Made by a program: the position numbers and the translations under genes. This document shows, one piece after another, positions 20,352 to 60,438 of a DNA stretch of 64,000 bases. Source of the stretch: an uncultured Bacilli bacterium (GTDB taxonomy: Bacteria; Bacillota_I; Bacilli_A; RF39; UBA660); contig CANQXB010000001.1 in NCBI GenBank assembly GCA_947627805.1, positions 24,836-88,835 of the forward strand, written 5' to 3'. The stretch's first letter is position 1. Each line of letters starts with the position of its first letter. The notes under the pieces are model-generated. The model made no database searches. It was not told the origin of the DNA and was given only the letters and a program-made list of their open reading frames with translations.

Positions 20352-20359
20352 TTTACTCT

Positions 20360-43418: not shown

Positions 43419-43862
43419 CTAAAATATATGTTCATAACAATAACCCGCATCTGTAGTATAATATATATGCCTAATTCCTTTATCCCGCAAAGCTGCAATA
43501 CACGCTTCACAAGGTCTCGCCATTCCAAAACCCCGTTCTTTACCAGGACAACTACGATAAATATAAACCTTAACCTTAGACCAATCTATTTGTTGTGCTA
43601 TTGGATAAGGTATTTCATTCAATGCTTTCATTTCCGCATGAACGCTATCAACAATAGGCTTTTCACTTTTTTTAAATGTACGGTATCGCCTATTATATTT
43701 ACGTTGTTTTGGATGTGTTTTATTACTATTAGATGCTTCACTAATAATATGGTGTTTATAAGCAATTACACATCCAAGACTATGAGTTTTATAAGTAGAA
43801 GTATAACTTACCTGATGTGCTTTTTCAAACATTTTATAATCAAAATTAGTAAGAGTTTTCAT
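43419..43862 (-). CDS. dCMP/cytidine deaminase family protein
   Basis: VHAEMKAL and PCEAC zinc-binding motifs. Confidence 0.7.
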   Translation of the reverse strand: MKTLTNFDYKMFEKAHQVSYTSTYKTHSLGCVIAYKHHIISEASNSNKTHPKQRKYNRRYRTFKKSEKPIVDSVHAEMKALNEIPYPIAQQIDWSKVKVYIYRSCPGKERGFGMARPCEACIAALRDKGIRHIYYTTDAGYCYEHIF

Positions 43863-44766: not shown

Positions 44767-45572
44767 TTAAAAAACTCTTTCCATTTATATCCATAACTAC
44801 TTTGAGATTTCCCCATACAAGCACGACGAATATTGCCTCCGCCATTAGCATTTTTCCCTATTTTTAAAGCTGCTTCAGTATAGTTACTATATTCTGCAAT
44901 TATTTTACCAGTTTTTGAATCAATTTGTTGAATAATACGTTTTTTAGGTTTTTGTAAAGTTGCATAATCTTCTACTTTACACCATCTAAAATTATAAGCT
45001 GTATGTTGTATATTATTAATTGCTAATTCTATTGCAGAGCGTGTACCATGCAAAGCTGCTGCCGCTGCTTTTATAGATGGATACTGTTTAATAATTTCTA
45101 AGGTATCTTTATCCAATTGATAGATCGGAATTGATGTTGTATTAGGTTTATTGTAAACACCTCGCTTACCTATTACTTTTCTAACAACACGTCTATCGCA
45201 TCCAAAATAATTAGCGGTTTGCTGGATATTTTGTAATTCTTTATATTTGGTCCAAATAGCGTCATAATCATATTGAGTGTTTCCATCGCCACCACGAGTA
45301 GCATTATATCCATTAGAATAAGTATTTAACTTATTAATCCAAAATTGTTCTCGTTCATCAATTTCTTCTTCATTGCATACTTCTAAAGTTGTAATAAAAA
45401 AATTATCTTCTCCATATTTTTTTATTGCATCATATAATGGACGTTTTTTATTTTGACTAGAATTAATATCACTTAAATGTTTTTTATATCTAGTCTGAAC
45501 ATCTGACATAGTTTTGCCTACATATTGTTTTCCATTTATTTTATTGGTGATACAATAGATAAATCCATTCAT
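44763..45572 (-). CDS. free-standing GIY-YIG homing-endonuclease-like protein
   Basis: GFIYCITNKINGKQYVGKT...R...H GIY-YIG motif plus a C-terminal DNA-binding region. Confidence 0.7.
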   Translation of the reverse strand: MNGFIYCITNKINGKQYVGKTMSDVQTRYKKHLSDINSSQNKKRPLYDAIKKYGEDNFFITTLEVCNEEEIDEREQFWINKLNTYSNGYNATRGGDGNTQYDYDAIWTKYKELQNIQQTANYFGCDRRVVRKVIGKRGVYNKPNTTSIPIYQLDKDTLEIIKQYPSIKAAAAALHGTRSAIELAINNIQHTAYNFRWCKVEDYATLQKPKKRIIQQIDSKTGKIIAEYSNYTEAALKIGKNANGGGNIRRACMGKSQSSYGYKWKEFFK

Positions 45573-46800: not shown

Positions 46801-46895
46801 TGGTACACGCGGAGGGACTTGAACCCCCATCGTGCGCTAATCTGGCGCTTATCTCGGGTATAAACCGAGCGCTCTGCCCATTGAGCTACGCGTGC
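46801..46895 (-). tRNA. atypical 95-nt tRNA with a 24-nt variable arm and apparent anticodon UAU
   Basis: GCACGCG-TA-GCTC/AATGGGCA/GAGC-G-CTCGG/TTTATAC/CCGAG, then variable arm with GCGC/GCGC stem, then GGGGG/TTCAAGT/CCCTC-CGCGTGT-A-CCA; identity uncertain. Confidence 0.6.
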
Positions 46896-46917
46896 ACTTT
46901 CCCTTTCTTACAATTAT

Positions 46918-46946
46918 ATTATAACATTAATATTTTTTGCTGTCAA
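46918..46946 (-). promoter_or_regulatory. sigma-A-type promoter, perfect TTGACA, 17 nt, TATAAT with TGn; drives the tRNA and the downstream gene
   Basis: Minus-strand reading TTGACAgcaaaaaatattaatgtTATAAT. Confidence 0.6.
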
Positions 46947-46954
46947 AATAATTT

Positions 46955-48145
46955 TTAAACTGCCTTAAAATTATAAATAGGAGTTAATTGCTCAGTTATA
47001 ACAAAACCATTACGAGTTAGGAGTTCTTCTAATGCTTTACTACTATTATATGTATTAGGAGCTTCATCTAATGTAGACTCAGTAACACAACTAGAATAAA
47101 TTCCATTCATTGATGCCTTATATGACTCTATTTGCAATAGTAGATGTGCGGCTGTACGTGACATTACACGACCAGCCCCATGCGGCAAACTATTATTCCA
47201 ATCTTCGTTCTCACACCCTTCGATAATAAGTAGTCCATCCCGCATATTTAACGGAACTAGACATCTCGCGTTTGTACAGTCGATAGCACCTTTTCGCACT
47301 ATATGATTATCTACATCAACGTAATTATGTAAACTTGTTGCAACTATAGAATAATTATAATAACCTATTAACATATTGGCCATAGCAATATGACTTACTA
47401 AAGACCAATTTGCACAAACTAACATATCATTTAAATAATCATCTAAATCATTACCTTCAATATAAGCTAAATCAGACTCTAAAGCATACTTTTCAATTTG
47501 TATTCCATGTAACATATCTAACATCTGGCTAATTAATTGTTCTTGATGCGTCTCTTTCCCATATGAAATAACAGCTTCCCGCATTGTTTTAAGTAGGTTA
47601 CCTTTACTTTTGGATTTTTCTACAGCAATTTTCTGATAAAAATTACAAACTTGTACTCCTAAATTGCGGGAACCACTATGTATAACAAGATAAACACGAC
47701 CATTGTCATCTACATCTAATTCGATATAGTGATTGCCTCCTCCAAGAGTGCCTTGAGAATTGATAATACGTTGATGATTACTAATATAATCCCAACACAT
47801 CAATTCATTATAATCAAAAGAAGAAACAGAATGATTATGAATATTTCTTCCTGTTGGAATAACAGAACGTACTTTTTTATCAAATTTATCTAAATCTGTC
47901 ATATCTTCTAAGAACCAAGGGGTTTCAAATAGCGATATGCGGCAACCAATATCAACTCCTACAGTATTAGGACAAATCTTATCACTAAATGTAGAGGTAA
48001 AACCAACACAAGACCCTTTACCCGCATGCGCATCTGGCATAATGCGGATTTTCTGGTCCACATACGCAGGACTTGCCGCAATTTCTGCAACCTGGTCTAA
48101 TAGTTTTTTGGTTTTATTTAAAGCAAAATTTTTAACATCAGTCAT
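46955..48145 (-). CDS. rtcB: RtcB RNA 3'-phosphate/2',3'-cyclic-phosphate ligase
   Basis: MPDAHAGKG, GVDIGC, GGGNHYIE and HSGSRNLG RtcB motifs; start moved to ATG 48145 behind RBS AGAAAGGGG. Confidence 0.8.
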   Translation of the reverse strand: MTDVKNFALNKTKKLLDQVAEIAASPAYVDQKIRIMPDAHAGKGSCVGFTSTFSDKICPNTVGVDIGCRISLFETPWFLEDMTDLDKFDKKVRSVIPTGRNIHNHSVSSFDYNELMCWDYISNHQRIINSQGTLGGGNHYIELDVDDNGRVYLVIHSGSRNLGVQVCNFYQKIAVEKSKSKGNLLKTMREAVISYGKETHQEQLISQMLDMLHGIQIEKYALESDLAYIEGNDLDDYLNDMLVCANWSLVSHIAMANMLIGYYNYSIVATSLHNYVDVDNHIVRKGAIDCTNARCLVPLNMRDGLLIIEGCENEDWNNSLPHGAGRVMSRTAAHLLLQIESYKASMNGIYSSCVTESTLDEAPNTYNSSKALEELLTRNGFVITEQLTPIYNFKAV

Positions 48146-48178
48146 AAAAAAAATCCCCTTTCTTAACAATATAAATAT

Positions 48179-48207
48179 ATTATATTATAATAGAAAGGGG
48201 TTGTCAA
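48179..48207 (-). promoter_or_regulatory. sigma-A-type promoter, TTGACA, 17 nt, TATAAT
   Basis: Minus-strand reading TTGACAacccctttctattataaTATAAT. Confidence 0.5.
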
Positions 48208-48229
48208 AGAAAAAATAAGCAGTTTTTTA

Positions 48230-49250
48230 GGTTAACGCCAAGACACTGCAAAACTTGGCGGATGTTAGCAGGCGGTGAGCCTATGATTCGTTTATATAAA
48301 CAGGCGGAGTACTTACTATCGACTATATGATCTTTCTCCGCGTCATATTTAACGTGTGACCAACCACGGTAAGCGTTTAATTTTTTTGACTGTTTATTTT
48401 ATTAATTATTAAATATAGATTTACAAAACTCTTAAACTGACTTTCGCCATACTCGCAAGCCCGCATAAATATTCAGCCACGTAGGAGATAAGTCTGACTC
48501 ATAAGGAGCGACCTTATAAGTTCTTACCCCGGCATCTTACCATATCTACGAGTGGATTGGTTACCACTAACTTTCACCCACCATTCAGAAATTGAATGGG
48601 ACTTTTTCCTCAAAAGCCAAATTAATTATTATTTAGTCTATTAATCTTCCTCAATTTGGGCTACTCGCTCTTTGAACTTTCCTTATAGTTAATTACTTAG
48701 CATCAACGAGGAAACTTACTTATTTGGATTCCCTAACGTACTATGAGGTTCCACCCTCATGCCTAATTAGGGTTCAAAGGTGCGCTGCACCCGCCTATTA
48801 CGCAAGCGGAAAGATAAAGCCTTTTTATACGAAACTCTTTTGAGCGCCATTCTCTTTTGTTGGAAGTTTCTTCCTTCTGCGACTTGGTTACCTGCTGCCG
48901 CAATGTCCGCCCACGATAAAAGTATCCTTTTATCGGACAGGCACTTAAGGGATGCCCCTGACCGCATGGTATTGCGCATGCACAAGGTTGTAAAGAGTTT
49001 TGTAAATCTATATTCAATTTTCAATTTACATTTTAGGTACCTTATTTTGTAAGGCACCTAATGTGGGGCATCTATTTTGTAGACGCCCCACGTAAATGAC
49101 TTAACATTAAGTCATATAAACTACTGCCCTATGATGTAGTTTACACCCAGCAACCCTCCGCTGCCCTGATAACCCTTCCCAGTAACCGATTGATTTGCAG
49201 AACGCAGGCTCAATCACATAGAACAGATCGTATGTTTAGTTTAAAGCCTT
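48230..49250 (-). ncRNA. candidate large structured non-coding RNA (about 1 kb), unclassified
   Basis: No ORF over about 95 aa on either strand; local GC far above the genome background; 12 or more strong hairpins (for example CCGATAAAAG-tatc-CTTTTATCGG, GTGGGGC...GCCCCAC, ATGACTTAA-cat-TTAAGTCAT, CCATTCA-gaaatt-GAATGG); two tandem consensus promoters directly upstream. Confidence 0.4.
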
Positions 49251-49257
49251 GATTTAT

Positions 49258-49286
49258 ATTATATCATTTTTTTATTTTATTGTCAA
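49258..49286 (-). promoter_or_regulatory. sigma-A-type promoter, TTGACA, 17 nt, TATAAT
   Basis: Minus-strand reading TTGACAataaaataaaaaaatgaTATAAT, facing the structured region. Confidence 0.5.
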
Positions 49287-49320
49287 AAGTTTTTTATTTT
49301 TCCTTTCTCTCTCCTTTTAT

Positions 49321-49349
49321 ATTATAACATATATTTTTCTATCTGTCTA
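49321..49349 (-). promoter_or_regulatory. sigma-A-type promoter, TAGACA, 17 nt, TATAAT with TGn
   Basis: Minus-strand reading TAGACAgatagaaaaatatatgtTATAAT. Confidence 0.5.
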
Positions 49350-49379
49350 GTAAAATTTTTAACTGTTTCTGGTCGCGAA

Positions 49380-49620
49380 GCCTAGGTGCTGCTCCTAGTT
49401 ACCCCAGCTTATGAGACTGGGTCAGATACTGACCTGCCGCCCGCATTTTGGTTGCTCCCGGTGGTTACGCTCCACCCGCACAATACTTATGAGGCATTGC
49501 TAGACACTAGTCAAGAGAGCAATGCATGTATCTTTACTCTTGAGTTCCTTACGCCAAGCTTGCGCCCAGCCGCGGACTCGAACCACGTCAAGCATCATTA
49601 ACATATTACTTTTACGTCTA
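49380..49620 (-). ncRNA. candidate structured ncRNA (about 240 nt) ending in a tRNA-like T-arm and acceptor 3' strand
   Basis: GC-rich hairpins (CCCAGC-ttatgaga-CTGGG, GGTCAG-atac-TGACC, GCATTGCT...AGCAATGC); 3' part CGTGG-TTCGAGT-CCGCG-GCTGGGC-G is a perfect T-arm plus acceptor 3' strand with no matching 5' acceptor strand; own promoter at 49740-49768. Confidence 0.45.
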
Positions 49621-49739
49621 AAAGTAAATTATAGTTAATTACTTTTGTAAAGATACATCTTTTCTACTTATAATAAGTAGAAAGTCTAATAAGAGATTCA
49701 CAACCCGTCGGCTTTTGTTATCTCCTTTCGATATTTATA

Positions 49740-49768
49740 TTATATCATAAAAATTTTTATCTGTCTAG
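49740..49768 (-). promoter_or_regulatory. sigma-A-type promoter, TAGACA, 17 nt, TATAAT with TGn
   Basis: Minus-strand reading TAGACAgataaaaatttttatgaTATAAT. Confidence 0.5.
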
Positions 49769-49864
49769 GTAAATTTTATATTGAATCAGCTTTGACACTT
49801 GAAGTCACAGTTTGTGATTTCAAATTTAAACCTATCTCTCATTGGTAAAAAACAATACCTATAG

Positions 49865-49939
49865 TCTGCCTAGCAGGATTTGAACCTACGACACCTTGCT
49901 CCCAAAACAAGTGCGCTAACCAAACTGCGCTATAGACAG
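49865..49939 (-). tRNA. tRNA-Pro (anticodon TGG), CCA not encoded
   Basis: CTGTCTA-TA-GCGC/AGTTTGGTTA/GCGC-A-CTTGT/TTTGGGA/GCAAG-GTGTC-GTAGG/TTCAAAT/CCTGC-TAGGCAG-A; flanked by inverted repeat TACCTATAG / CTATAGGTA. Confidence 0.75.
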
Positions 49940-49949
49940 GCTATAGGTA

Positions 49950-50249
49950 TTACAACTCTTCTAAGAAAACCTCAATCTTCTTAGCAAGAACAGCTTTTGT
50001 TTTGCGGCCCCGCACAAGATCATCTTTAATTTCATATAAAAATTCTGTCATTTCATTTATATCTTGTGCTTTTGAATCGTTCCGATATTCATAATAATCA
50101 CGATCCTCAGTTGCTGCATATAATTGAGCTTTTAAATTTTCTACTTCATCTTGACAGAGATACTGTCTAACATCATTAATTTCGTCACTGTCAAAGCCAG
50201 CTTCCCGCAAACTTTCTTCACAAGAATATTGACTATAGATGAATTTCAT
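49950..50249 (-). CDS. acidic hypothetical protein
   Basis: 99-aa ORF with a long structured leader. Confidence 0.45.
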   Translation of the reverse strand: MKFIYSQYSCEESLREAGFDSDEINDVRQYLCQDEVENLKAQLYAATEDRDYYEYRNDSKAQDINEMTEFLYEIKDDLVRGRKTKAVLAKKIEVFLEEL

Positions 50250-50541
50250 ATTTATTCCTTTCTTTTGGAATAAAAATTTTTTTCTGGTGGAGCTGCTGAC
50301 TTACGATAGCCAGGTCCTAACATACTAATTACTAAATCCTTAATATAATCTAAAAGATAAAATTAGTTAATAAATGTGCCTTTTAATGATTCTTCCTCGC
50401 ACGTAAAAGGCATCGGTGCGAGGTATAGGCTTATGCTGCCATTGCAAAATTAAATTTGTCAGTTAATTTTTTAAAGGTGATTACAGATTTAGCTTTCATA
50501 TCCTAGTCGAATCCTTTCAGCCCCTTTCTCATTATATTAAT

Positions 50542-50571
50542 ATTATAACATATTTATTATCTGGCTGTCAA
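50542..50571 (-). promoter_or_regulatory. sigma-A-type promoter, TTGACA, 18 nt, TATAAT with TGn
   Basis: Minus-strand reading TTGACAgccagataataaatatgtTATAAT. Confidence 0.45.
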
Positions 50572-50574
50572 GAT

Positions 50575-51132
50575 TTACATTATAAAGAACTCTGAAAATT
50601 CATTTGTATTATAACAAGTAGGACCACTATAAACTCCACTTGCGTTACCACGATAAATTTCAAAATGAAGATGCGGGCCTGTACTATTTCCAGTAGACCC
50701 AACCACCCCAATTTGTTCACCTTTCCGCACATGTTGTCCAAAAGTAACACGAATGTCAGGCTGATGCGCGTAAGCAGTAGTCAAATTTAAATCTGGGTGA
50801 TATATTTGTACATAATAGCCATAAGTGCCGCACCACCCCGCATAAATTATTTCACCATTGGCAGCTGCATAAATAGGAGTATACATAGTCGCGGGAATAT
50901 CGCAAGCAGGATGCCCCGCGTAAGTAGTATAATATGAGTTATCTGTTAGTGGCCATAGTAAACGGCCATCAGTTGAATGTCGCGCACCACCACCATCAGG
51001 AATCCATATTGAATAAGTAATCCCTGGAAGAGGAGAAAGTGGAATCCGCACTTCTTGTGCGGAAGCTACAGTAGGTAACATAAATAGACATAGTAATGCA
51101 GTTATGCAACTGCCGCATATTTTGTGTAACAT
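50575..51132 (-). CDS. secreted M23/LytM-family peptidase
   Basis: Signal peptide plus HxxxD and GPHLHFEIY motifs. Confidence 0.7.
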   Translation of the reverse strand: MLHKICGSCITALLCLFMLPTVASAQEVRIPLSPLPGITYSIWIPDGGGARHSTDGRLLWPLTDNSYYTTYAGHPACDIPATMYTPIYAAANGEIIYAGWCGTYGYYVQIYHPDLNLTTAYAHQPDIRVTFGQHVRKGEQIGVVGSTGNSTGPHLHFEIYRGNASGVYSGPTCYNTNEFSEFFIM

Positions 51133-51285
51133 AACAAACCTTTCTCTGAACTATTTTAGCGCAATCCAGCGATACCACGAGGAGGTATAGTTCTAATCGC
51201 CACAAATAATAACGCGGCAGGGGATAATAGTTCACCCTACCGCGCCATCCTATAAATTAAAAAATCTTAATTAAAGATTGTTAAA

Positions 51286-51843
51286 TTAAAGCCGAGAAAC
51301 TAAAGAATAAATATATTTTTCTAAATCAGAAGGATTATCTTTTTTATAATTTAGCAAGTCAGATATATTATAACTATTGGTAGAATAATTATATTTAGGA
51401 CCTGCTTGCTGTTTTTGAAGAAGTTTGCAATATTTATTTAAAAGTTTACTATAATCACCACTAACTTTATTATACTTGTTTTCTAGTTCTTCATATGCTT
51501 CTTCTAATTCTTCATATTCATCTATTGAAACATCTTGTGGTGACTCTTTTTCCTCTTGAAGCTGTTTCTCAAACTCGTCAAAGCCTTCTTCTAGTCCTCC
51601 ATTCAACTCATCACAGACCTCTGTAATAGTTTCACCTTCTGCGGTGACTTCAATTTCATATCCCTCCGCAGTATGTACAGTTACTTCGCCTGAAGCACCC
51701 GCATCATCTTTACTAATAGAAACTGTATAAGTAATTTGATCTGTCATTTTATCTCCTTTTTCATCAATAATTAGTATATAAATCTCTTGTACCTGCCGCG
51801 CACCCTGAATCATATACTTTTCCCTGTCCATATGGTGTATCAA
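51286..51843 (-). CDS. acidic hypothetical protein
   Basis: 185-aa ORF. Confidence 0.4.
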   Translation of the reverse strand: MIHHMDREKYMIQGARQVQEIYILIIDEKGDKMTDQITYTVSISKDDAGASGEVTVHTAEGYEIEVTAEGETITEVCDELNGGLEEGFDEFEKQLQEEKESPQDVSIDEYEELEEAYEELENKYNKVSGDYSKLLNKYCKLLQKQQAGPKYNYSTNSYNISDLLNYKKDNPSDLEKYIYSLVSRL

Positions 51844-52546
51844 TTACATCACCATATGCATCAGAAGAAGAAGCTACAACAATATTACCTTCTTCGTCAC
51901 AAACAAATCCACGTTCATCAACATGGCGGCCTGGTATTGATAAACCTTCTCCTGGAAGCATATTTTGACTATACCACGTATACCTCCATCCATTTTGATA
52001 TACTACACCAGCATTTTTAAAATCACTAGAATAACTATTATCGTAATTATTAGTAATTGGAATAAATGTGTCAGAATGATTAATTGAAGTAGATGCATCA
52101 GAATAATTAACTGGATTTTGTTGAGTAGTTATTGTATCTTTTGTGGATTGCGCTTCTGCTTGTATTAAATCTACTCCATTAAGAATACCATGAATTTCTT
52201 TAATAGAATGCGACGTAGCCATAGTGATTGACATTTGTTCTAATACATTTAATTGTTCTTCTGTTAAATATCCACTATATTGAATTATTGTATCTGCAAT
52301 ATAAGTTGCATATCTAGCTTTTATATCACTAATTTCTTGTAACCATTCATCTAAATTATCAAAACCATCTGACTCGTACCAATCTGCAGGAACTTTTAAA
52401 TCTTGTACTTCTTCATTAAATGTTGTTTGCGAAACTGTTTGTTCTTCTTGTTGAATATAATTAATATGACTATAATATCCAATACAAATAGCACATAGGA
52501 TAATTAGAATACCTGCGATAGTACCAAGAATAATTTTTCTTTTCAA
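51764..52546 (-). CDS. membrane-anchored protein with C-terminal 3D (MltA-like) domain
   Basis: N-terminal TM helix; GRHVDERGFVCDEEGNIVVASSSDAYGDVIDTPYGQGKVYDSGCAAGTRDLY. Confidence 0.5.
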   Translation of the reverse strand: MKRKIILGTIAGILIILCAICIGYYSHINYIQQEEQTVSQTTFNEEVQDLKVPADWYESDGFDNLDEWLQEISDIKARYATYIADTIIQYSGYLTEEQLNVLEQMSITMATSHSIKEIHGILNGVDLIQAEAQSTKDTITTQQNPVNYSDASTSINHSDTFIPITNNYDNSYSSDFKNAGVVYQNGWRYTWYSQNMLPGEGLSIPGRHVDERGFVCDEEGNIVVASSSDAYGDVIDTPYGQGKVYDSGCAAGTRDLYTNY

Positions 52547-52581
52547 TCATTTCACCTTCTCAAAATAAAAAGTGTATTTAA

Positions 52582-53409
52582 TTATATATCAAAATCAGAA
52601 GATTCAAATGATTCACTTTCGTCCGCTCGCACACCAATATTATTATTCATTAAAGTAAAAGCTGTATCCAAAAGTAGCTTACATTTATGACACCTACAAT
52701 TCATATCATAAGCACACTTCCGCCCGCATCTCATTTTATAATCAATAATTTCACTTTGTATATAACTATTGCCTGGAATAGGTACGTTTAAACCAGTAAT
52801 AATTTCTTGTAGATTACCACGCCAATGTTGCTTTTCAAACCAAGCCCTATAATAGACTCCAAATTTATCCCAGTTATAAGGACTACCGCAATCAAATTCT
52901 ACTACATCAATATAATTTTTATATCTCTCGAATGCTTGCGGTGCAAAGAACATACCTTTTTCAGGCTGAGATTCAATTGCACTACTTTGCATATGATTCA
53001 AAATTATTCGCACTTCTGTCCATTCTTGAATTTGCGGCAACTTGTATAAGAGGTCTCCCGCAGGATAGATTGCGCACACTCCAACAGCAAGAAGATCTTG
53101 AAATAAAACAAAATTATCTACTGGATCCTGTGTAAAGAAACTTACGCGGGAATCTCTTAATTCCGCCGCATGTTCCCGCAATTGTTGACGAGTTAACTTA
53201 CATGAAACATGCGGGTGTATCCTTTGGAGTGTTCGCATAAGAGATGCATCTACACTATCAAACATAATAACTAATCTGTGATCTTGATACTCTTCAGCAA
53301 ACTCAATTAATTTTTCAAAAGAATTACGCTTATTATTATATTTAAGAATTAATTCTCCCATTTTATCTGTATATTTATTATTAAGTGCAAACGGTCCAGC
53401 TAATATCAT
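52582..53409 (-). CDS. hypothetical protein
   Basis: 275-aa ORF. Confidence 0.45.
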   Translation of the reverse strand: MILAGPFALNNKYTDKMGELILKYNNKRNSFEKLIEFAEEYQDHRLVIMFDSVDASLMRTLQRIHPHVSCKLTRQQLREHAAELRDSRVSFFTQDPVDNFVLFQDLLAVGVCAIYPAGDLLYKLPQIQEWTEVRIILNHMQSSAIESQPEKGMFFAPQAFERYKNYIDVVEFDCGSPYNWDKFGVYYRAWFEKQHWRGNLQEIITGLNVPIPGNSYIQSEIIDYKMRCGRKCAYDMNCRCHKCKLLLDTAFTLMNNNIGVRADESESFESSDFDI

Positions 53410-54878
53410 ATATGTCCTTCCAACAAAGCTGTATAAAAATCTAAATATTCTTTATCCGATTCACAAAGATTTTTTGCTATAAAATGCCCTTCTTCTATAT
53501 CATATCGCAATTCTTCTTGCGCGCATGATTCACACATTTTAGTATATGTTATGCCACCTGTAATTACATTATATACGGGTATTAAATATACTTCATCTGG
53601 ATCATAATGAGATTCGCAACATTCGCATAGTTCTTTATTTAAACAATTATAACAAACGATTTCACATGCTTCTCCGCAATCATCCTCAATTAGCGGTTCC
53701 CCGCATACAACGCAATGAGCAGTTGCCCCAATACTAATATCTATGGTTTTAGGAACATAATTGCGGGAACATACAAAAGGATAAGATGGGTTATTAGGAA
53801 AATCATTATATACTAATCCATGAGAAACAAAGAAAATTCGATGTGCTCTCTCATTAGTAGTAGGAGACCAATCCCAATATAGAGAATCTTTATATTCTTC
53901 TTGTTTATATTGGTAATTCCATTTGAGGTTTTCCTTAACCAAATCTTCGATGCCGGAAAGCGCGGCACAGTCAATTGATTTAGAATGGAATGGATAACTT
54001 TTACCTATAATTGCAATATGTTTATTAACAAAAGCAAAAGCTCTCCAAAATTTATTTGGTAGAGGTTGTCGCATTCCTGATACTTGCATATCTTTACTAT
54101 GTTTAGCATATACAATTAAACAATTTTTACTTCCAAGATATTCAAGAATACCTGCTCTATATGCTCCTGGACGCCTAAAATCGAGGCATGAGGTCCAGCC
54201 GCAATGATTATCACTTGCCATCAATATATCTAAAGGATGAATACTAATTACAATAGACCGCGGACGTGTGCTGCGGGTGCGTATATTTGAGATTGCATCA
54301 CACCAACGTGTAAATAATGGTAAAATATTTTTTTGTATTTTTTCATCTAAGCACATTATAATTTTGCGGATGCCTTTAATTGGTTTACATCCTTCAGGAA
54401 TTTTTACTTTTTTACCGTTAACAGTAAATTCATAAGTCTTTTGGACACGTTGTTCTGCAATTTGTTTATAGCTAAACAAACACGTAAGATCAAAAACATC
54501 TTCTTCTTTGATAAATGGAAAGACATTATAAAAAAATCGTGCTACAAATATATCTTGGAACACATTTTGTAAAGAATCTTCATCCATGTTCATATATATT
54601 TTAGCTTCCCACGTATCAATGGGATAAAAATTATAAATAGTAGATAAGTCTTGAGCGATTACATCAGTTGAGTCATTAAATAAAGATACATCAACAGGAA
54701 TTTCAACTCTAAGTTTACCGCCAAGAGCTTTACAAAGAGTTGTTTTATTTTTATTCCAGTCACCTAATAAATCTTCTATAGGTAATAGATACTCATCATG
54801 AGGATAACTAACAGATAATTGATAATAATTATATATATCGTGTAATTCATCTTCTGATAAAAGATCAATAGGATACAT
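53406..54878 (-). CDS. hypothetical protein with Cys-rich C-terminal Zn-binding region
   Basis: 490 aa with multiple CxxC pairs near the C-terminus. Confidence 0.5.
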   Translation of the reverse strand: MYPIDLLSEDELHDIYNYYQLSVSYPHDEYLLPIEDLLGDWNKNKTTLCKALGGKLRVEIPVDVSLFNDSTDVIAQDLSTIYNFYPIDTWEAKIYMNMDEDSLQNVFQDIFVARFFYNVFPFIKEEDVFDLTCLFSYKQIAEQRVQKTYEFTVNGKKVKIPEGCKPIKGIRKIIMCLDEKIQKNILPLFTRWCDAISNIRTRSTRPRSIVISIHPLDILMASDNHCGWTSCLDFRRPGAYRAGILEYLGSKNCLIVYAKHSKDMQVSGMRQPLPNKFWRAFAFVNKHIAIIGKSYPFHSKSIDCAALSGIEDLVKENLKWNYQYKQEEYKDSLYWDWSPTTNERAHRIFFVSHGLVYNDFPNNPSYPFVCSRNYVPKTIDISIGATAHCVVCGEPLIEDDCGEACEIVCYNCLNKELCECCESHYDPDEVYLIPVYNVITGGITYTKMCESCAQEELRYDIEEGHFIAKNLCESDKEYLDFYTALLEGHI

Positions 54879-54887
54879 CTTTTTCCT

Positions 54888-55136
54888 CTACTCTATAATA
54901 TCAATCTCTTCATCTATTCTATCTTTACTATATTGCGGAAGCATTAAATAATCTAAATTATATTCTTCAAAAAAACCATTCATTTGTTCAAAAGTTACTT
55001 TACCATTATATGTATCTTTTATTTCTTGTATCATCTCTTCTGTTCTCGCGGCTAAATCATTTTCTATCATTGAAAACATACCAGCATTAGGGGGGAATAA
55101 TTGTGGTGGAAAAATTTGTGTAAAATCTTCTTCCAT
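54888..55136 (-). CDS. hypothetical acidic protein
   Basis: 82-aa ORF. Confidence 0.4.
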   Translation of the reverse strand: MEEDFTQIFPPQLFPPNAGMFSMIENDLAARTEEMIQEIKDTYNGKVTFEQMNGFFEEYNLDYLMLPQYSKDRIDEEIDIIE

Positions 55137-55167
55137 ATTAACTCCTTTACTCTATTTACTATAATAT

Positions 55168-55196
55168 ATTATATCATAAAGGAATTATTTTGTCTA
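55168..55196 (-). promoter_or_regulatory. sigma-A-type promoter, TAGACA, 17 nt, TATAAT with TGn
   Basis: Minus-strand reading TAGACAaaataattcctttatgaTATAAT. Confidence 0.5.
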
Positions 55197-55220
55197 ATAG
55201 ATTTTTAGACAAAGTTATAA

Positions 55221-55251
55221 AAATAAAAAAAGTGCGGAAACCCGCACTTTT
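55221..55251. terminator. bidirectional rho-independent terminator downstream of the Ro60-like gene
   Basis: AAAAAAA-GTGCGG-aaac-CCGCAC-TTTT. Confidence 0.65.
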
Positions 55252-56707
55252 AATAATGAATTGCTTGAATTACTTCTTCTAGTTTTAATCCTTGGTTTGC
55301 CTCCATATATGGGAACAATTTAAATACTTTATCATTTAGTGCGGTCATTAGATGAACATAAGGATTATTTGGATTAGCAATCTGTCCTTTGTAATTGCCT
55401 AAGTCAAAACTAAATATATCTGTACGACCATATTTTGTACAATAACGATTATAAGAATTAACAGTATTCTCACGACTATTATAATAATGGTCTTCCATTG
55501 TTTGCATATCACTAATAAGAAAGATGCGGTCAACTTTTTCATCTAATTGATTGAATGCTTTTGGAACATTAGTGCCATATCCTAGATTTTCTTCATCAAT
55601 CATATGTTCAATACTAACAAATGGATTAAATCTAATTGCATTTGTATCATAATTTTTCTTTTTAGCTGAAGTGCCAAATTTAATGAATACACTTTCAGGA
55701 TTTTGAATCAATAGAGTCGCCGCATATACTGCGCCAACTTCTTTAAGAGTAATAACACTCTTAGGTGACATGCGACAATCCATAGACCCAGATATATCAA
55801 GCATAATAGCTGTGCGGCCATCCAGCTGGGGAATATTTCCAACAGCCGCATAGAATGCTTGTTGAAGAGCATCAATTAAATTACCTGGCACAATATCTTT
55901 AATCTCACGATAAGCCGCATAAATTTGATATGGAAATACTAATGATTTATAGATTGCTATTTGATTACATACTTGGCCGCAAAGATATTTAGTAATCCAC
56001 TCTCTTGAAACTCCGCTTTGTAAAATATTGCGGAGATTGCGGATGAGCGCTAAATATCCAAGTTGCTTTTTCTCAACTAGATTTTGCCAAGCCTTACAAC
56101 GTTCTTCTTCTGACTGCTGTTGAGAAATATTACGTTCCCACGTATCAATTTCTGAATATTGTTCATATACAAACTTATCAATATGCGGGGAAGTTGCATG
56201 AGTAATTCTAATTAAATCATGCATATTATATTTTTTACCCTTTAGCTTATATTTTGCTAATTGGTAACCTGTTAACTGTGAGAGATAATCGCAAATACCT
56301 CGAACCACCGCATGAGATCTCTTTTGTCCCATCATCTCAATTGCCGCGAATAGTTCTGCCGCGTCATCAGGTCTATGCGGGAAGTGCGCATAGAACTGAC
56401 GTTTATTAGCAAATTGGAGGTCATTAAGATACGCCGCTACTAAAGTAGCCGCGCTCCGCATTCCAAGTTCATTACGAGCAAAGTAAGCGCCCTTTGCCGC
56501 AAATTCTGGCCCCTTAGTATCAATTACTTTTTGAGTCAGATCAAGGAAACGAGTTGTTTGTTCTGTTTCTGTTTCATAAAATTTATCTGAGAGGAAAGAT
56601 GAAAACATAAAATTAATCCAATCCTCTGTTGGATTTTTTTGATACAACTCTGCGCCCTCGTATGATATTGTTTTAGGTGCTTCTTGCTTCATATTAAATT
56701 TGGACAT
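55250..56707 (-). CDS. Ro60-like RNA-binding protein (TROVE domain plus C-terminal vWA domain with MIDAS motif)
   Basis: 485 aa; MIDAS LDISGSM with downstream GYGTNV and LISDMQT metal-site equivalents; N-terminal alpha-helical-repeat region consistent with TROVE; assignment from motif layout only. Confidence 0.55.
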   Translation of the reverse strand: MSKFNMKQEAPKTISYEGAELYQKNPTEDWINFMFSSFLSDKFYETETEQTTRFLDLTQKVIDTKGPEFAAKGAYFARNELGMRSAATLVAAYLNDLQFANKRQFYAHFPHRPDDAAELFAAIEMMGQKRSHAVVRGICDYLSQLTGYQLAKYKLKGKKYNMHDLIRITHATSPHIDKFVYEQYSEIDTWERNISQQQSEEERCKAWQNLVEKKQLGYLALIRNLRNILQSGVSREWITKYLCGQVCNQIAIYKSLVFPYQIYAAYREIKDIVPGNLIDALQQAFYAAVGNIPQLDGRTAIMLDISGSMDCRMSPKSVITLKEVGAVYAATLLIQNPESVFIKFGTSAKKKNYDTNAIRFNPFVSIEHMIDEENLGYGTNVPKAFNQLDEKVDRIFLISDMQTMEDHYYNSRENTVNSYNRYCTKYGRTDIFSFDLGNYKGQIANPNNPYVHLMTALNDKVFKLFPYMEANQGLKLEEVIQAIHY

Positions 56708-56965
56708 TATCTCTCCTTATATATCTCACGGGGAAATACTATAGAAGGTAATATGATAGCTTATCATGTCAGCTATGTTTTCCTTATTATATACTGAAGT
56801 AACCTTCTAACCATCACCCGCAACTTACATAAATGGGCACTATATTAATAATGCCCTTAGATAGAGAAAGGAAAAAAGGTACAAATAAGGACATACTTAA
56901 AAAAGTGTTTACATACCATCCTTTATATGAAGTAACTTTTTTACCATCACTTATTTGATATTTAT

Positions 56966-56994
56966 ATTATATATTAATTTTTTTATATTGTCAA
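56966..56994 (-). promoter_or_regulatory. sigma-A-type promoter, TTGACA, 17 nt, TATAAT, driving the Ro60-like gene through a roughly 250-nt leader
   Basis: Minus-strand reading TTGACAatataaaaaaattaataTATAAT. Confidence 0.5.
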
Positions 56995-56999
56995 ATTTT

Positions 57000-57029
57000 T
57001 TGACATGTTTTTTACAATTATGGTATAAT
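57000..57029 (+). promoter_or_regulatory. divergent plus-strand promoter, TTGACA, 18 nt, TGnTATAAT
   Basis: TTGACAtgttttttacaattatggTATAAT, 22 nt upstream of the RBS of ORF 57052. Confidence 0.55.
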
Positions 57030-57051
57030 AAATTTAAAAGAGAGGAGTTTT

Positions 57052-57354
57052 ATGGACGATAAAAAATATATTAAGTTGTTATGTAGTGATTGTGACAATC
57101 AAAATATATGCGTATATGGAGATAAATATTGTTGGTGGTTAGACCAAGAAAATATTGGATGTACTAGATTAGTTGATTCTGAAACGCATGATGAATATTT
57201 TTATCGTACAAATGAAGAACTACCTTTATTTTTAGCCAATCCAAAAGTCAATGAAGAACAAAAGATAAAGAAGTTCAATGAGCTTTTGGATTGGCTTGAT
57301 AAGTTCATATACTCCGCACCTATAGGAAGGATATGCGGGAGTCCGCAAGATTAA
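57052..57354 (+). CDS. Cys-rich hypothetical protein
   Basis: 100 aa; RBS AGAGGAG. Confidence 0.5.
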   Translation: MDDKKYIKLLCSDCDNQNICVYGDKYCWWLDQENIGCTRLVDSETHDEYFYRTNEELPLFLANPKVNEEQKIKKFNELLDWLDKFIYSAPIGRICGSPQD

Positions 57355-57704
57355 TTATAATTCTTGCGCTGTTTCATTTGCTCCAAATATGCGCGTCCTT
57401 TGTCTGTTAAAACATATACCGCATCATCGTCGTCCTTATCCTCATCGTCTTCTTGGTCATCTTTAAAGAAATCCTCAAACAGCTTATAAATAGCTCTCAT
57501 GTGTGATTCATACTCTTCATAGCGCCAATCAGAAAAACAATCTTGGCAGATATGTCGTTCCCGTACTTTGAACAGGTTTCTGTCTGGGACAAAAAAAGTA
57601 TTAATGTAATCACCAAAGAGCCCAGGATGCTCAGAATCCTCAACAAAGGACTGCCCGCATACGTCACAACGAAAACGATAAAGTTTCTCTTGTCCTACGT
57701 ACAT
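57351..57704 (-). CDS. acidic zinc-finger protein
   Basis: CDVCGQ...CQDC; D/E-rich C-terminus. Confidence 0.45.
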   Translation of the reverse strand: MYVGQEKLYRFRCDVCGQSFVEDSEHPGLFGDYINTFFVPDRNLFKVRERHICQDCFSDWRYEEYESHMRAIYKLFEDFFKDDQEDDEDKDDDDAVYVLTDKGRAYLEQMKQRKNYN

Positions 57705-57723
57705 TTTTTGTTCCTTTCTCTCT

Positions 57724-57951
57724 TTATTTTACTTTGCGAATCTCAAATACTACACCTTGTTTAGGCTTATGCGCATTAAGAAAGTCTTGTGCATCTTCTT
57801 TTGTTGCAAAAGAAAAAGCATCATCTAATTTAGTAACTCTTTCTCCTTTTTCATTAATAGCACGAAAACTACTATCAGGTCCCATATATTTATGAGTATC
57901 TGTATTATAAATAGCTTCAGTTCTCTTACCATATACTAGATATTGGCCCAT
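57724..57951 (-). CDS. hypothetical protein
   Basis: 75-aa ORF. Confidence 0.4.
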   Translation of the reverse strand: MGQYLVYGKRTEAIYNTDTHKYMGPDSSFRAINEKGERVTKLDDAFSFATKEDAQDFLNAHKPKQGVVFEIRKVK

Positions 57952-57973
57952 ATATTCTCCTTATAATTATTTT

Positions 57974-58207
57974 TTAAATAATTTTTATTGGAGGTTCATT
58001 ATAACCTTTTATTTTATTTTTGTCAAGTATCCGCGGTGATGACTTATGAGATACATAAACACCAGAGCGAGATAAATCTGGAGTAATATCATCTTTACCG
58101 GCCTTAGAAATTTTTACAGCTAACCTTTTAAGACTTTTGGGAAGTGTTTTGTCGAGTATGGGATTTGTCATAGCACGCAAAACCATAACATCGCAAGGAT
58201 AAAACAA
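57974..58207 (-). CDS. hypothetical protein
   Basis: 77-aa ORF. Confidence 0.35.
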   Translation of the reverse strand: MFYPCDVMVLRAMTNPILDKTLPKSLKRLAVKISKAGKDDITPDLSRSGVYVSHKSSPRILDKNKIKGYNEPPIKII

Positions 58208-58347
58208 GATATAGTTAATATCATAGAAGACGATATTAAAATATAAAACACTGCTTGATAGTCTTTCATTTCAATACCTAAATTTATTATTATTACTACT
58301 TAATATTGCAAAGATAATACCTATTAATAATAATATTAATCCAAGTA

Positions 58348-58584
58348 TTAATCCATACATTGAAACTCCCAATCTTCTTCCCGTAAACAATCTTCATAAG
58401 TTGGAAAAAATGTTTCTCCTCTATGATTAATCCAATCATATGCAATTGGAACATTAGCCCAAGCTAATACTTGTCGGCAAAGTCTCTTCTCTCTCTCAGA
58501 AAGTTCATCACTATTAAGCAATTGCTCAATTTTGCGGGTCTTAATGCGGGGATCTCTATCCATGAAATAATCAATATCAATCAT
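58348..58584 (-). CDS. hypothetical protein
   Basis: 78-aa ORF. Confidence 0.4.
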   Translation of the reverse strand: MIDIDYFMDRDPRIKTRKIEQLLNSDELSEREKRLCRQVLAWANVPIAYDWINHRGETFFPTYEDCLREEDWEFQCMD

Positions 58585-58598
58585 TATTCTTCCTCATT

Positions 58599-59423
58599 TC
58601 AATAGTACCTAGCGAAAATTTCATCATTCTCTACATAGGCAAAATCATCACATACACACCGCATCTGTGAGACTTCTTCATCGCCCCAATCTTCAAAGCT
58701 ATCTTTATGATAGTGGCCATGAATCCAAGGAATTTGCGGGAACTTGCGATAGACACCTTCTAGGATGCGCTGTCCCGCGGTTGTCGCATCGAAGGGCAGG
58801 TCATATTCTTTATTATAATTTAAAGAAATATGCGATGGTGCATCATGAGAAACAATTACATCTGGAGTAAAACTCATTGTTGCGAGAACCAATTTCACAC
58901 CTGTATAATCAACATCCTCATTTTCCCACCAAGAACGATGATTACACCGCACACTCTCAAAACGACTGCGGTAAAGATAATATCTCTCCATATCTTCTGG
59001 ATCACTAGGGTTGGCTGGCGTATGCCACAGGTCATGCGAAGCTGCACCAGGAATCAAAAAGAATTTTTGACCCGCAATTTCACCCGCCCATGGTCTATCT
59101 ATAATATAAATGTTATCAAAATACTCACCATACATTACGAATTGCCGCACAGGATAATTACCAAGATAGATACTATCCATAGCGCCATATGCATCTCGAT
59201 CATCATGGTTGCCGCACATTGCATAGATAGGATAACCAAGGTTATTTAGGAAGTGCGCATATCGCAATTCTCTTTGCATATCTTCAATTGTGTGGTCAGG
59301 AGAAAGAACTCCAAAAGGAATACCAAAGTCACCAGCAATGATTACCGCGTCAGCTTGATGTTTCTGCGGCCACTCCCGCAAAACTGGGCAGCCATGAATA
59401 TCGCCTGTAATGTAAACTGTCAT
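58599..59423 (-). CDS. calcineurin-like metallophosphoesterase (paralogue 3 of 3)
   Basis: GDIHGC...IAGDFG...CGNHDD motifs. Confidence 0.65.
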   Translation of the reverse strand: MTVYITGDIHGCPVLREWPQKHQADAVIIAGDFGIPFGVLSPDHTIEDMQRELRYAHFLNNLGYPIYAMCGNHDDRDAYGAMDSIYLGNYPVRQFVMYGEYFDNIYIIDRPWAGEIAGQKFFLIPGAASHDLWHTPANPSDPEDMERYYLYRSRFESVRCNHRSWWENEDVDYTGVKLVLATMSFTPDVIVSHDAPSHISLNYNKEYDLPFDATTAGQRILEGVYRKFPQIPWIHGHYHKDSFEDWGDEEVSQMRCVCDDFAYVENDEIFARYY

Positions 59424-59445
59424 TCTCTCTCCTTTCTTTTATTAT

Positions 59446-59474
59446 ATTATAACATTAAAAAATATTACTGTCTA
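59446..59474 (-). promoter_or_regulatory. sigma-A-type promoter, TAGACA, 17 nt, TATAAT with TGn
   Basis: Minus-strand reading TAGACAgtaatattttttaatgtTATAAT. Confidence 0.5.
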
Positions 59475-59493
59475 ATAGTTTTTTAGAATGCGG

Positions 59494-60438
59494 CTATCCT
59501 AGATTTATAAATGCACGAGCTGCCGCAAAGGTCTCTCGTTGAAGAGCTGCGAAATTAATAGTCGGGTTCTTCCATTTCTTACAAATGAGAGCTATTTCAT
59601 CAAGAACCGCATCTCTCCAAACCATTTGTAGGTACATTCCAATATGCTTATTTGTTTTAGTACTGAATTGTTCGTTAAGAGTATTCTCAATTTTTGCGAT
59701 AGCTTTCCCGCATTCTTCATCAGTGACACAATATTTGACAATCTCTTTTTCTGTCTCTCCTGCGGGAATTACTTTCTTGCTCTTGGATTTGTCTTGTCGA
59801 TACTGCGGCCGCACATATTTACCAATTTCATAGCGGCCATATTTATTAAGATAATCAAGTCGCCGCACAACCAAACCTTCTCCAATAGCGCCATTGAGCA
59901 TTAGGAAAGTATTTTTTTCAGCCTCAGCCGCAATATCTTGTGTCGTTGGATTTTCAAGAGTTTTAAATGGTACATAATAAGGATATTTTTCTTCTCCATA
60001 CATGTCCCAATAGACATCAAGAAGCTCTCGCCATTCCGCATCTTCTAGGTAGCGGCCTGTGGATGAATCATAAATATCAAACACCCACAAGTGTTCAAGT
60101 GCTAGAGTTGGATCATAAGATTTAATGCTTCCGATAAATTTGCGGGAACCGAGCCATTCTCCATATATAATATAGGAAGGATTATCTGTTAGCACTTGCC
60201 GCAAAACAACCTTTTCAGAAGTATTTACATTAGACCACCAGAGAGCAAAATCTGCGTTGTCTTTCTCTATAGTGATGGTGCGAGTGCGGGAGCCTGCGCA
60301 AAATTCGCCATCATTGAACCAGACACAAGAATTAGTGCCATCCAGCTTTGGAGAAATTGTGACAGTGCCATTGAGAAGTCCTTCTACATCAGGAGACTCC
60401 AGTTTTTCAACATGATTATATGAACGATAAGTAGTCAT
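59494..60438 (-). CDS. RNA ligase, Rnl2-like covalent nucleotidyltransferase
   Basis: Motif I SPKLDGTN, motif III YIIYGEWLGS, motif IV GEGLVVRRL, motif V region; no OB/DNA-ligase-type C-terminal domain. Confidence 0.55.
   Translation of the reverse strand: MTTYRSYNHVEKLESPDVEGLLNGTVTISPKLDGTNSCVWFNDGEFCAGSRTRTITIEKDNADFALWWSNVNTSEKVVLRQVLTDNPSYIIYGEWLGSRKFIGSIKSYDPTLALEHLWVFDIYDSSTGRYLEDAEWRELLDVYWDMYGEEKYPYYVPFKTLENPTTQDIAAEAEKNTFLMLNGAIGEGLVVRRLDYLNKYGRYEIGKYVRPQYRQDKSKSKKVIPAGETEKEIVKYCVTDEECGKAIAKIENTLNEQFSTKTNKHIGMYLQMVWRDAVLDEIALICKKWKNPTINFAALQRETFAAARAFINLG

Follow-up and report, generated by a model that had tools for sequence, protein, structure and literature searches.

Two Y-like RNAs upstream of a phage Ro60 gene in a region of RNA maintenance and repair genes

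The 64-kb stretch of contig CANQXB010000001.1 analysed here (positions 24,836 to 88,835; hereafter the window) has a GC content of 32.8% and carries genes that mark it as phage DNA, namely those for an endolysin, NrdD, a DNA polymerase, RecJ, DnaB, topoisomerase II and an ATP-dependent DNA ligase. It belongs to a large tailed phage of low GC content with relatives in gut metagenomes, and a megablast search with a 13.7-kb region of it against 50,697 deposited phage records returned zero matches. An RNA-maintenance and repair island of ~20 kb, an accessory region of early-gene type, spans ~40.6-60.5 kb. It comprises a Ro60 orthologue with two Y-like RNAs, the RNA ligase RtcB, a second, Rnl2-like RNA ligase (Rnl), a putative RlaP-like nucleotidyltransferase (NTase), three metallophosphoesterases (MPE1 to MPE3), a transfer-messenger RNA (tmRNA), tRNAs and a ROOL RNA. 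The genes of the island, and the RNAs and promoters described below, lie on the minus strand unless a strand is given. An earlier reading made from the letters of the window alone (the sequence-only reading) had named the two ligases, Ro60, the NTase and the three phosphoesterases, and Pfam, PHROGs and fold comparisons agree with both its coordinates and its superfamilies; the span it gave for the set, 46801-60438, is too short to include four of the listed members, namely tRNA-Arg, the NTase and two of the phosphoesterases. The main new result is a pair of Y-like RNAs immediately 5' of Ro60, which had previously gone unnoticed.

Most of what is known about Ro60 and its Y RNAs comes from human autoimmunity and a small number of bacteria, and to our knowledge the function of a phage Ro60/Y-RNA pair has been studied so far in one thermophilic phage. 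The Ro60 orthologue of the window (55250-56707) consists of a TROVE HEAT-repeat ring and a vWA domain with the MIDAS motif DISGSM. It matches the Pfam family PF05731 with 59.5 bits (cut-off 23; E = 4.7e-16), and its residues 13-349, MIDAS motif (DxSGS) included, match the crystal structure of Ro60 from Thermus phage phiLo (PDB 9l5y/9kop; E = 3e-25), in which DVSGSM of 9l5y aligns with DISGSM. Residues D304, S306, G307, S308 and M309 are invariant across 26 homologues. We predicted the structure by AlphaFold2 (mean pLDDT 82.7), the check that the sequence-only reading had proposed for this gene. Structural similarity search of the model using Foldseek revealed that the best 13 PDB matches are all Ro60 proteins (phiLo, Xenopus, human, Deinococcus), over ~500 columns and with E-values of 1e-16 to 1e-11. 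The phiLo protein is the best match both in sequence (E = 3e-25) and in fold (E = 8e-16), whereas generic vWA proteins appear only at E > 2e-3 and over ~200 residues. Because the fold matches to Ro60 are full-length and those to vWA proteins weak and partial, the predicted product is a genuine Ro60 with a full TROVE ring, and the reading as a generic vWA protein is ruled out. An intrinsic terminator, a 10-bp stem followed by a T run (55228-55251), lies directly 3' of the Ro60 stop codon.

On the other side of the gene, a perfect promoter (TTGACA-17-TATAAT, 56994-56966) and the Ro60 start codon enclose ~250 nt that are occupied by the two Y-like RNAs. Y-like RNA 1 (56882-56959) scores 72.1 bits (E = 5.5e-16) with the covariance model described below, termed R1; Y-like RNA 2 (56725-56826; 61.4 bits, E = 3.4e-13) has the same architecture and ends 17 nt upstream of the start codon. 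Each unit is composed, in order, of an outer stem, a GUGAUGG internal-loop motif, an inner stem, GUUACUUC, a variable loop, the return of the inner stem, a U-rich/UUUCC stretch and the return of the outer stem. Between the two RNAs, a GC-rich hairpin followed by AUUUAU (56835-56856) was recorded as a terminator-like site in the scan and is possibly a processing or attenuation site. In the window neither unit has a tRNA-like module (T-arm, acceptor-like stem and D-arm), and the motif GNCGAA(N)G is absent from both, GUGAUGG standing at that position.

Related Ro60 loci (labelled L) were collected from IMG/VR by an alignment-based scan, which succeeded where a scan of the same database with the single Ro60 protein gave no match. 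They fall into a clade of 59 loci at ≥40% Ro60 identity and a distant clade of 23 loci at 27-31%; homologues at 42-58% identity lie on viral contigs of ~80-147 kb, many from gut metagenomes. The model R1 was built from a seed of 14 sequences, in which 91.4% of the modelled pairs can form, compared to ~52% in shifted controls, and 13 of the 19 pairs changed on both sides. Seven of ten pairs are compensatory in the outer helix, which had not been selected for complementarity when the units were cut out. A search with R1 gave 106 copies in 78 related Ro60 loci, every one on the strand of Ro60 and 73 of them within 700 nt upstream of it; in the distant clade a copy is present in 17 of 23 loci. Among 87 distinct sequences, compensatory changes occur at all 19 modelled pairs and 91% of the cells are paired (44-52% in shifted controls), in an alignment that was fitted to R1 and is hence biased toward the structure. 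In the window, R1 finds only the two units at a significant score. Two weak matches, at 39565-39644 and 28577-28661, lie inside open reading frames (ORFs) with broken inner stems and were dismissed as chance.

As a negative control, R1 was run on 93 ROOL loci together with a close relative, L203 (94 sources), and matched only the three contigs that also encode Ro60. A family that tracks ROOL was thus rejected; the Y-like RNAs track Ro60. The family is seen only by a structure-aware model, since nhmmer with the leader upstream of the window Ro60 found no match in the Ro60 loci L001-L082. A tRNA-like module is present in the Y-like units of L001, L021, L034, L035, L037, L040, L046, L055, L057 and L067, and the canonical motif stands in the matching context in L040 (GACGAAG) and L037 (GUCGAAG). 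Through this T-arm, acceptor-like stem and D-arm the Rfam YrlA model (RF02553) matches the L034 unit with 37.7 bits (E = 5e-7; gathering score 69). By sequence, the window encodes a Ro60/Y-RNA unit of sigma-70 promoter, two Y-like RNAs, Ro60 and terminator, in which Ro60 is predicted to bind the RNAs. With two Y-like RNAs immediately in front of the gene, the Ro60/Y-RNA idea of the sequence-only reading gains support.

Comparison with known systems places this unit close to that of phage phiLo, whose Ro60 binds two Y-like RNAs and attenuates polynucleotide phosphorylase (PNPase), with structures solved (PMC12135203). In both phages a Ro60 with TROVE ring and vWA domain is preceded by two Y-like RNAs just upstream on the same strand (Yrl1 and Yrl2 in phiLo; PDB 9kop, 9l5y). 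However, the two proteins are only ~21-22% identical, and neither the hosts nor the phage lineages are related. In phiLo the RNAs were chosen for a CGAA motif, compared to a 5' strand of GUGAUGG...GUUACUUC in the window; some relatives of the window keep GNCGAAG. YrlA and YrlB of bacteria and mycobacteriophage (RF02553), of which phage copies and the YrlA design are known (Chen et al., PMC4201824), likewise share the strand of Ro60, lie no more than 4 kb from it and have a long stem joining the 5' and 3' ends. The units of the relatives resemble YrlA in their tRNA-like module; the window units, which have none, resemble YrlB instead. Unlike members of RF02553, no Y-like unit reaches the gathering score (37.7 vs 69 bits), and the motif at the Ro60 site mostly differs from GNCGAA(N)G. 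The Salmonella rsr-yrlBA-rtcBA operon (PMC7790460) also encodes Ro60, Y RNAs and RtcB together. In the window, however, RtcB lies 7 kb from Ro60 behind its own sigma-70 promoter, a terminator follows Ro60, and a second ligase, an RlaP-like NTase, a tmRNA and ROOL are added. Neither the RtcA cyclase nor the RtcR regulator with the sigma-54 control of that operon was found among the window ORFs scanned.

RtcB, a 3'-phosphate/5'-OH RNA ligase, is encoded at 46955-48145, within an ORF of 46955-48169 whose true ATG lies at 48145. It matches PF01139 with 168 bits (cut-off 27; E = 5e-49). The conserved signature blocks of the family (MPDxH, DIxC, GxGNH, HxGSR, HGAGR) are present as MPDAH, DIGC, GGGNH, HSGSR and HGAGR and align with those of P. 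horikoshii RtcB (PDB 1uc2/4dwq); the last of them we take to hold the guanylylated His. The catalytic residues are thus intact. In L203 a LAGLIDADG ORF of 286 aa, either an intein or a homing endonuclease carried by an intron, splits the RtcB gene (18615-20843), and in L001 a LAGLIDADG element lies inside a gene for an AAA_33 kinase.

The second ligase (59494-60438) is an ATP-dependent RNA ligase of probable Rnl2 architecture, with an N-terminal nucleotidyltransferase domain and a predicted C-terminal helical domain. It matches PF09414 with 74 bits (cut-off 27; E = 2e-20) and phrog_548, annotated as RNA ligase (E = 4e-31). Motif I reads KLDG with K31, and K31, D33 and G34 of this motif, together with E94, F120, E187, G188 and K207, are invariant in 43 homologues. 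A sequence-level search of the PDB gave no match. Foldseek with the AlphaFold2 model (mean pLDDT 93.6), in which helices span residues 228-310 after the nucleotidyltransferase domain, returned RNA ligases for all of the top 40 PDB matches, DNA ligases following from rank 41 on. The matches include NgrRnl (5cot; E = 7e-10) and T4 Rnl2 (2hvr; E = 1e-9), as well as archaeal Rnl3, T4 Rnl1, REL1 and Trl1. The match to T4 Rnl2 covers 352 columns, but with a high RMSD and 17% identity, and the best match of the core is NgrRnl, an Rnl5 enzyme. In this model comparison the protein groups with RNA ligases and not with DNA ligases or capping enzymes, either of which would have refuted the sequence-only reading, and an RNA-sealing activity is predicted. 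The ATP-dependent DNA ligase of the window is a separate gene (33540-34610).

At the other end of the island, a Pol-beta-type NTase (41335-42159) carries a GS..D.D motif, the residues G33, S34, D45 and D47 of which (GS...DxD) are invariant. It matches phrog_388 (E = 2e-14), and the Pfam RlaP family (PF10127) with 16.1 bits, below the cut-off of 23 (E = 0.009); RlaP is matched by four of seven homologues (best E = 2e-5), and a PDB search with the NTase profile gave no match. On this sequence evidence we treat the enzyme as a distant, RlaP-like member of the superfamily and not as a confirmed RlaP. RlaP adds one or two nucleotides to damaged RNA 3' ends and was defined through its association with RNA ligases (PMC12776372). 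The NTase lies directly 3' of Ro60 in ~27 related loci, within ~5 kb of Rnl; the remaining loci have three function-unassigned genes directly after Ro60 instead.

The three phosphoesterases were described by the sequence-only reading as paralogues. All are metallophosphoesterases, but they are only loosely paralogous, and MPE2 belongs to a different family. MPE1 (40647-41357), whose gene overlaps the end of the NTase gene, and MPE3 (58599-59423) are of calcineurin type. They match PF00149 with 48 bits (E = 2.6e-12) and 45.3 bits (E = 1.7e-11), and phrog_1649 with E = 9.5e-18 and E = 4.5e-20, respectively. MPE2 (44104-44766) matches phrog_547 (E = 8e-30) and reaches only 18.7 bits with PF00149, below the cut-off of 21.5, and its translation contains the DxH, GD, GNHD and HxH motifs. 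MPE3 is a candidate RNA 3'-end healing enzyme, a role that we infer only. The order of Rnl and MPE3 is syntenic in L203 and L004, and in the closer clade Rnl (PF09414) precedes Ro60 by 3-4 kb in 46 of the 59 loci.

The structured RNA region of the sequence-only reading is present as well, and its principal member belongs to a known family, ROOL (RF03087), whose RNAs form octameric nanocages. The ROOL RNA at 48418-49011 covers the full model (positions 1-574) with 324.7 bits (cut-off 99.1). It is full-length and high-scoring and lies, as is typical of ROOL, in a phage tRNA/ncRNA region; what sets it apart is its position, with RtcB 248 nt downstream and Ro60 at a distance of 6 kb. A survey by pattern scan of IMG/VR yielded 93 verified ROOL loci, with a loose pattern, two stricter patterns from the Rfam consensus having given zero loci. 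These 93 loci contain tRNAs in 55 cases, RtcB in three and Ro60 in one. Two of the three with RtcB are viral contigs with the same RtcB-ROOL geometry, the two genes being 321 nt apart on the same strand, and with 41% RtcB identity; they look like copies of one element. A specific link of ROOL to RtcB or Ro60 as a general rule was rejected on these counts. ROOL tracks tRNA arrays, in agreement with earlier reports that it sits near tRNA islands (PMC5737381, PMC12286853). ROOL is directly adjoined by Y-like units, at its 5' end, its 3' end or both, in three further phages that encode Ro60: L046 (17033-18122 and 18121-18810), L083/L044 (8739-8955, 8956-9630 and 9620-9755 in L083) and L037 (14094-14665 and 15038-15250). 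This arrangement suggests that the nanocage RNA and modules binding Ro60 are transcribed together; none of the papers in the literature library searched mentions ROOL together with Ro60.

A short phage tmRNA (50285-50524; RF00023, 49.8 bits, cut-off 47) has a canonical tRNA-like domain with a 3' ACCA, its 5' part being GGGGCUGA..GGAUUCGAC and its 3' part ..CUCCACCA. Its predicted tag is (A)DKFNFAMAA followed by a stop. ARAGORN calls the homologue in L203 (tag DEFNFAMAA) and not the window copy. The three tRNAs listed by the sequence-only reading are real according to ARAGORN and Rfam: tRNA-Pro(UGG) at 49864-49939, tRNA-Arg(UCU) at 42436-42510, and the odd type-II tRNA, an atypical tRNA(UAU) of 95 nt with a 21-nt extra arm at 46801-46895 (Rfam tRNA, 61.5 bits). 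The combination of an isoleucine-type anticodon and a long variable arm is unexpected, and this tRNA lies directly downstream of RtcB both in the window and in L203 (20918-21011).

Between ROOL and tRNA-Pro lie further structured RNAs. RNA-1 (49522-49735, ~210 nt) is unclassified; it begins with AAUAUCGAAAGG and contains a T-arm-like hairpin, CGUGGUUCGAGUCCGCG, and 22 of its 67 predicted pairs are compensatory in a comparison of three sequences only. CGAA near its 5' end may be reminiscent of Y RNAs. RNA-1 is followed by a tandem pair of tRNA-like elements (49370-49521), whose anticodon loops read CUCAUAA (CAU) and whose D and T loops are non-canonical; only the mitochondrial mode of ARAGORN (-mt) calls them. 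The elements are conserved between tRNAs in L203 (15312-15468), L004, L021, L041, L036 and L001, and could be unusual tRNAs, decoys or relics. The region 49370-49735 has a fold z-score of -3.2 and homologues in relatives; Rfam at E ≤ 10 found nothing in 49012-49870.

Promoters divide the island into many units. On the gene strand of the 20-kb region there are eight perfect (12/12) sigma-70 promoters, six of them directly upstream of assigned units: besides the one of the Y-like RNA/Ro60 unit, those of the tmRNA (50571-50542), the ROOL leader (49286-49258, 247 nt upstream of ROOL), RtcB (48207-48179), tRNA(UAU) (46946-46918) and a dCMP deaminase (43928-43900). The other two (58026-57998 and 45697-45669) stand at the starts of small unnamed ORFs. 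Promoters matching at 11 of 12 positions precede Rnl (60493-60465), MPE3 (59474-59446), the NTase, RNA-1 (49767-49739) and the gene block after Ro60, and a further promoter (49349-49321) accompanies the structured RNAs of 49370-49735. Loose promoter matches are in modest excess only (123 vs 98 in shuffles), but perfect matches at such a density are not expected by chance. As each unit carries its own promoter, the island fits a set of separately and strongly expressed, presumably early units of the host polymerase rather than an operon.

Several genes unconnected with RNA are interspersed in the island, namely those for an M23 peptidase, a dCMP deaminase, a SLOG protein and a homing endonuclease. 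The SLOG/YAcAr-family gene (42948-43313) and the dCMP/cytidine deaminase gene (43419-43862) stand between RNA-repair genes; in L031 SLOG/YAcAr and deaminase genes lie directly upstream of Ro60. The homing endonuclease, of GIY-YIG type, is encoded at 44763-45572. Outside the island a GyrB-like topoisomerase subunit is broken up within 36868-40149 (minus strand) into an ATPase and transducer part (38770-40149) and a C-terminal piece (36868-37218), with a GIY-YIG-type homing endonuclease ORF in between (37888-38622), all on the minus strand.

Directly 3' of Ro60, three function-unassigned genes (490, 275 and 260 aa) occupy 51764-54878. The 490-aa protein, for which only 13 homologue clusters were found, has a Cys-rich C-terminus, and the 260-aa protein an N-terminal hydrophobic segment. 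Pfam gave no match for the three, and PHROGs only phrog_18912, of unknown function. They are syntenic 3' of Ro60 in 17-28 related loci (tblastn) and in L203. On the other side of Ro60, a 100-aa gene with a good Shine-Dalgarno sequence (57052-57354, plus strand) points away from the Y-RNA/Ro60 promoter and is preceded by a perfect promoter of its own (57000-57029). Its homologues stand at the same position in 33 related loci, and it matches no family.

The close relative L203 (a 116-kb contig; Ro60 78% identical) keeps the full gene order, with proteins 61-85% identical. The shared order is Rnl, MPE3, Y-like RNAs, Ro60, the three unassigned genes, M23 peptidase, tmRNA, tRNAs, ROOL, RtcB and tRNA(UAU), and L203 has 15 tRNAs interspersed with the same unclassified elements. 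Across both Ro60 clades the conserved module is Ro60 with a Y-like RNA, because the distant clade keeps the Y-like RNA but no repair genes within 10 kb of Ro60; the wider linkage is lineage-specific.

From the family memberships, the intact catalytic motifs, the structure of the Y-like RNAs and their linkage to Ro60, the promoters and the synteny, we read the island as a set of independently transcribed modules that share the theme of maintaining and repairing the RNA side of translation, and not as a single operon-like machine (probability about 0.6). The trigger would be host ribonucleases, such as anticodon nucleases and toxin RNases, that cut tRNA or rRNA during infection. RtcB would reseal 2',3'-cyclic-phosphate/5'-OH breaks directly, and the RlaP-like NTase would restore one or two lost 3' nucleotides. 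A phosphoesterase and the Rnl2-like ligase could provide a second, heal-and-seal route, which needs a 5'-kinase not present in the window. The tmRNA would free ribosomes stalled on broken mRNA, the phage tRNAs would replace depleted ones, and the Ro60/Y-RNA particle would handle misfolded or damaged RNAs, or restrain host PNPase as in phage phiLo. Such a mechanism agrees with the counter-defence picture drawn for jumbo phages, whose RNA-repair sets with RtcB, Rnl1/Rnl2, TROVE, RlaP, phosphoesterases and tRNAs have been read as a counter to host attack on tRNA (PMC7824862).

Several observations weigh against this reading. The activities of the components come from the biochemistry of their families only. 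The phosphoesterase annotations are generic, and one of the three also matches NinI-like protein phosphatases in PHROGs. Homologue searches and Pfam scans of the 64-kb window found no polynucleotide kinase, Rnl1 or RtcA, so that the route through the 5'-phosphate ligase is incomplete there. Relatives encode an AAA_33 kinase and Rnl1 near Ro60; the window has no homologue of that kinase and no suitable P-loop ORF. Non-RNA genes are interspersed in the island. RtcB is absent from 58 of the 59 loci of the closer clade and lies near Ro60 only in L031 and L203 among the relatives. In the distant clade no Rnl, NTase, RtcB or phosphoesterase occurs within 10 kb of Ro60, so the linkage in the closer clade may be inherited gene order and not functional coupling. 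The sequence-only reading had proposed a counter-defence or RNA-salvage system with parts for every step of tRNA repair. Its domain calls are right, and the interpretation is supported in part: a single integrated system is not established, given the separate promoters, the interspersed genes and the distribution of RtcB and of the repair genes in the relatives. The claim of complete coverage fails, within the window, on the missing 5'-kinase and Rnl1 and on phosphoesterases whose RNA-end specificity is only presumed.

The same observations would suit a mosaic accessory region, in which independent morons collected beside a tRNA array that is a hot spot for insertions and homing endonucleases, each working on its own or having no part in RNA repair, and clustering is a matter of history. 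The promoters are separate, genes of other kinds stand in between, the distance between Ro60 and the NTase varies from adjacency in ~27 loci to 13 kb here, and the region and its surroundings contain homing endonucleases (the GIY-YIG gene at 44763-45572 and the LAGLIDADG ORF in RtcB of L203). The distant clade without repair genes near Ro60, and the predominance of tRNAs (55 of 93 ROOL loci) over RtcB (three) and Ro60 (one), point the same way. However, a mosaic sits less well with the high density of RNA-end enzymes (two ligase classes, an RlaP-like NTase and three phosphoesterases) next to Ro60, tmRNA and tRNAs, with the co-occurrence of the same families in unrelated jumbo phages (PMC7824862), with the very definition of RlaP by its association with RNA ligases (PMC12776372), or with the complete order kept in L203 at 61-85% protein identity. 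We regard it as possible, though clearly less likely than shared modules of RNA maintenance.

An unlikely explanation, in our judgement, is a takeover of RNA decay. The Ro60/Y-RNA particle would mainly restrain host PNPase or the degradosome and so stabilise phage transcripts and tRNAs, with ligases and phosphoesterases put to other uses such as degradation of nucleotide signals or dephosphorylation of proteins. The precedent is phiLo, where Ro60 and the Y-like RNAs form a complex with host PNPase and lower its activity (PMC12135203). Nothing but the Ro60/Y-RNA pair is kept in both Ro60 clades, the phosphoesterase matches are generic or NinI-like, and the SLOG/YAcAr protein belongs to a family linked to nucleotide-derived signalling (PMC7824862). 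Yet RtcB, Rnl2-like ligases and RlaP-like NTases have no known role beyond RNA end joining or extension (PMC12776372), and tmRNA and tRNAs indicate translation rescue. Least probable is a single ribonucleoprotein hub, in which Y-like modules would recruit Ro60 to long ROOL/tRNA/decoy transcripts and a ROOL nanocage with Ro60, RtcB and RlaP would shelter, present or repair attacked tRNAs; it is hinted at by the Y-like units abutting ROOL in three phages and by ROOL lying 248 nt from RtcB here and 321 nt in two other loci. In the main reading, ROOL stands where it does chiefly because phage tRNA arrays are where it is usually found.

Overall, the locus is a rich but recognisable case of the RNA-repair and translation-rescue toolkits known from large phages. 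The sequence-only reading had found no described system to match it; phage RNA-repair sets, phage Ro60 with Y-like RNAs, phage YrlA and ROOL have all been published. It shares with jumbo-phage repertoires and the T4 Pnkp/Rnl system RtcB and/or Rnl1/Rnl2, an RlaP NTase, phosphoesterases, tRNAs and an occasional TROVE protein. Compared to jumbo phages, the contig is only ~116 kb, and the phage is therefore not a jumbo phage; ROOL and tmRNA are embedded in the region, which also sets it apart from those repertoires. Unlike in T4, no 5'-kinase was found in the window, and healing would rely on calcineurin-type enzymes in place of the T4 HAD phosphatase.

What the analysis adds is a Y-like RNA family, names for the ROOL and tmRNA genes, and the restriction of deep conservation to the Ro60/Y-RNA pair; for annotation, ~2.4 kb of "intergenic" DNA become named RNA genes. 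The finding that ROOL adjoins RtcB in two related genomes, with Ro60 not far away, offers a concrete but weakly supported hypothesis, and the ribonucleoprotein hub, if true, would be the first functional context for ROOL. The Y-like family itself is divergent; covariation supports it strongly, yet at the curated threshold Rfam does not detect it. A large clade of gut-associated phages carries Ro60 together with such divergent Y-like RNAs, the closer relatives usually with an Rnl2-like ligase and often an RlaP-like enzyme nearby, so that RNAs and proteins are at hand for experiments on the role of Ro60 particles in phages.

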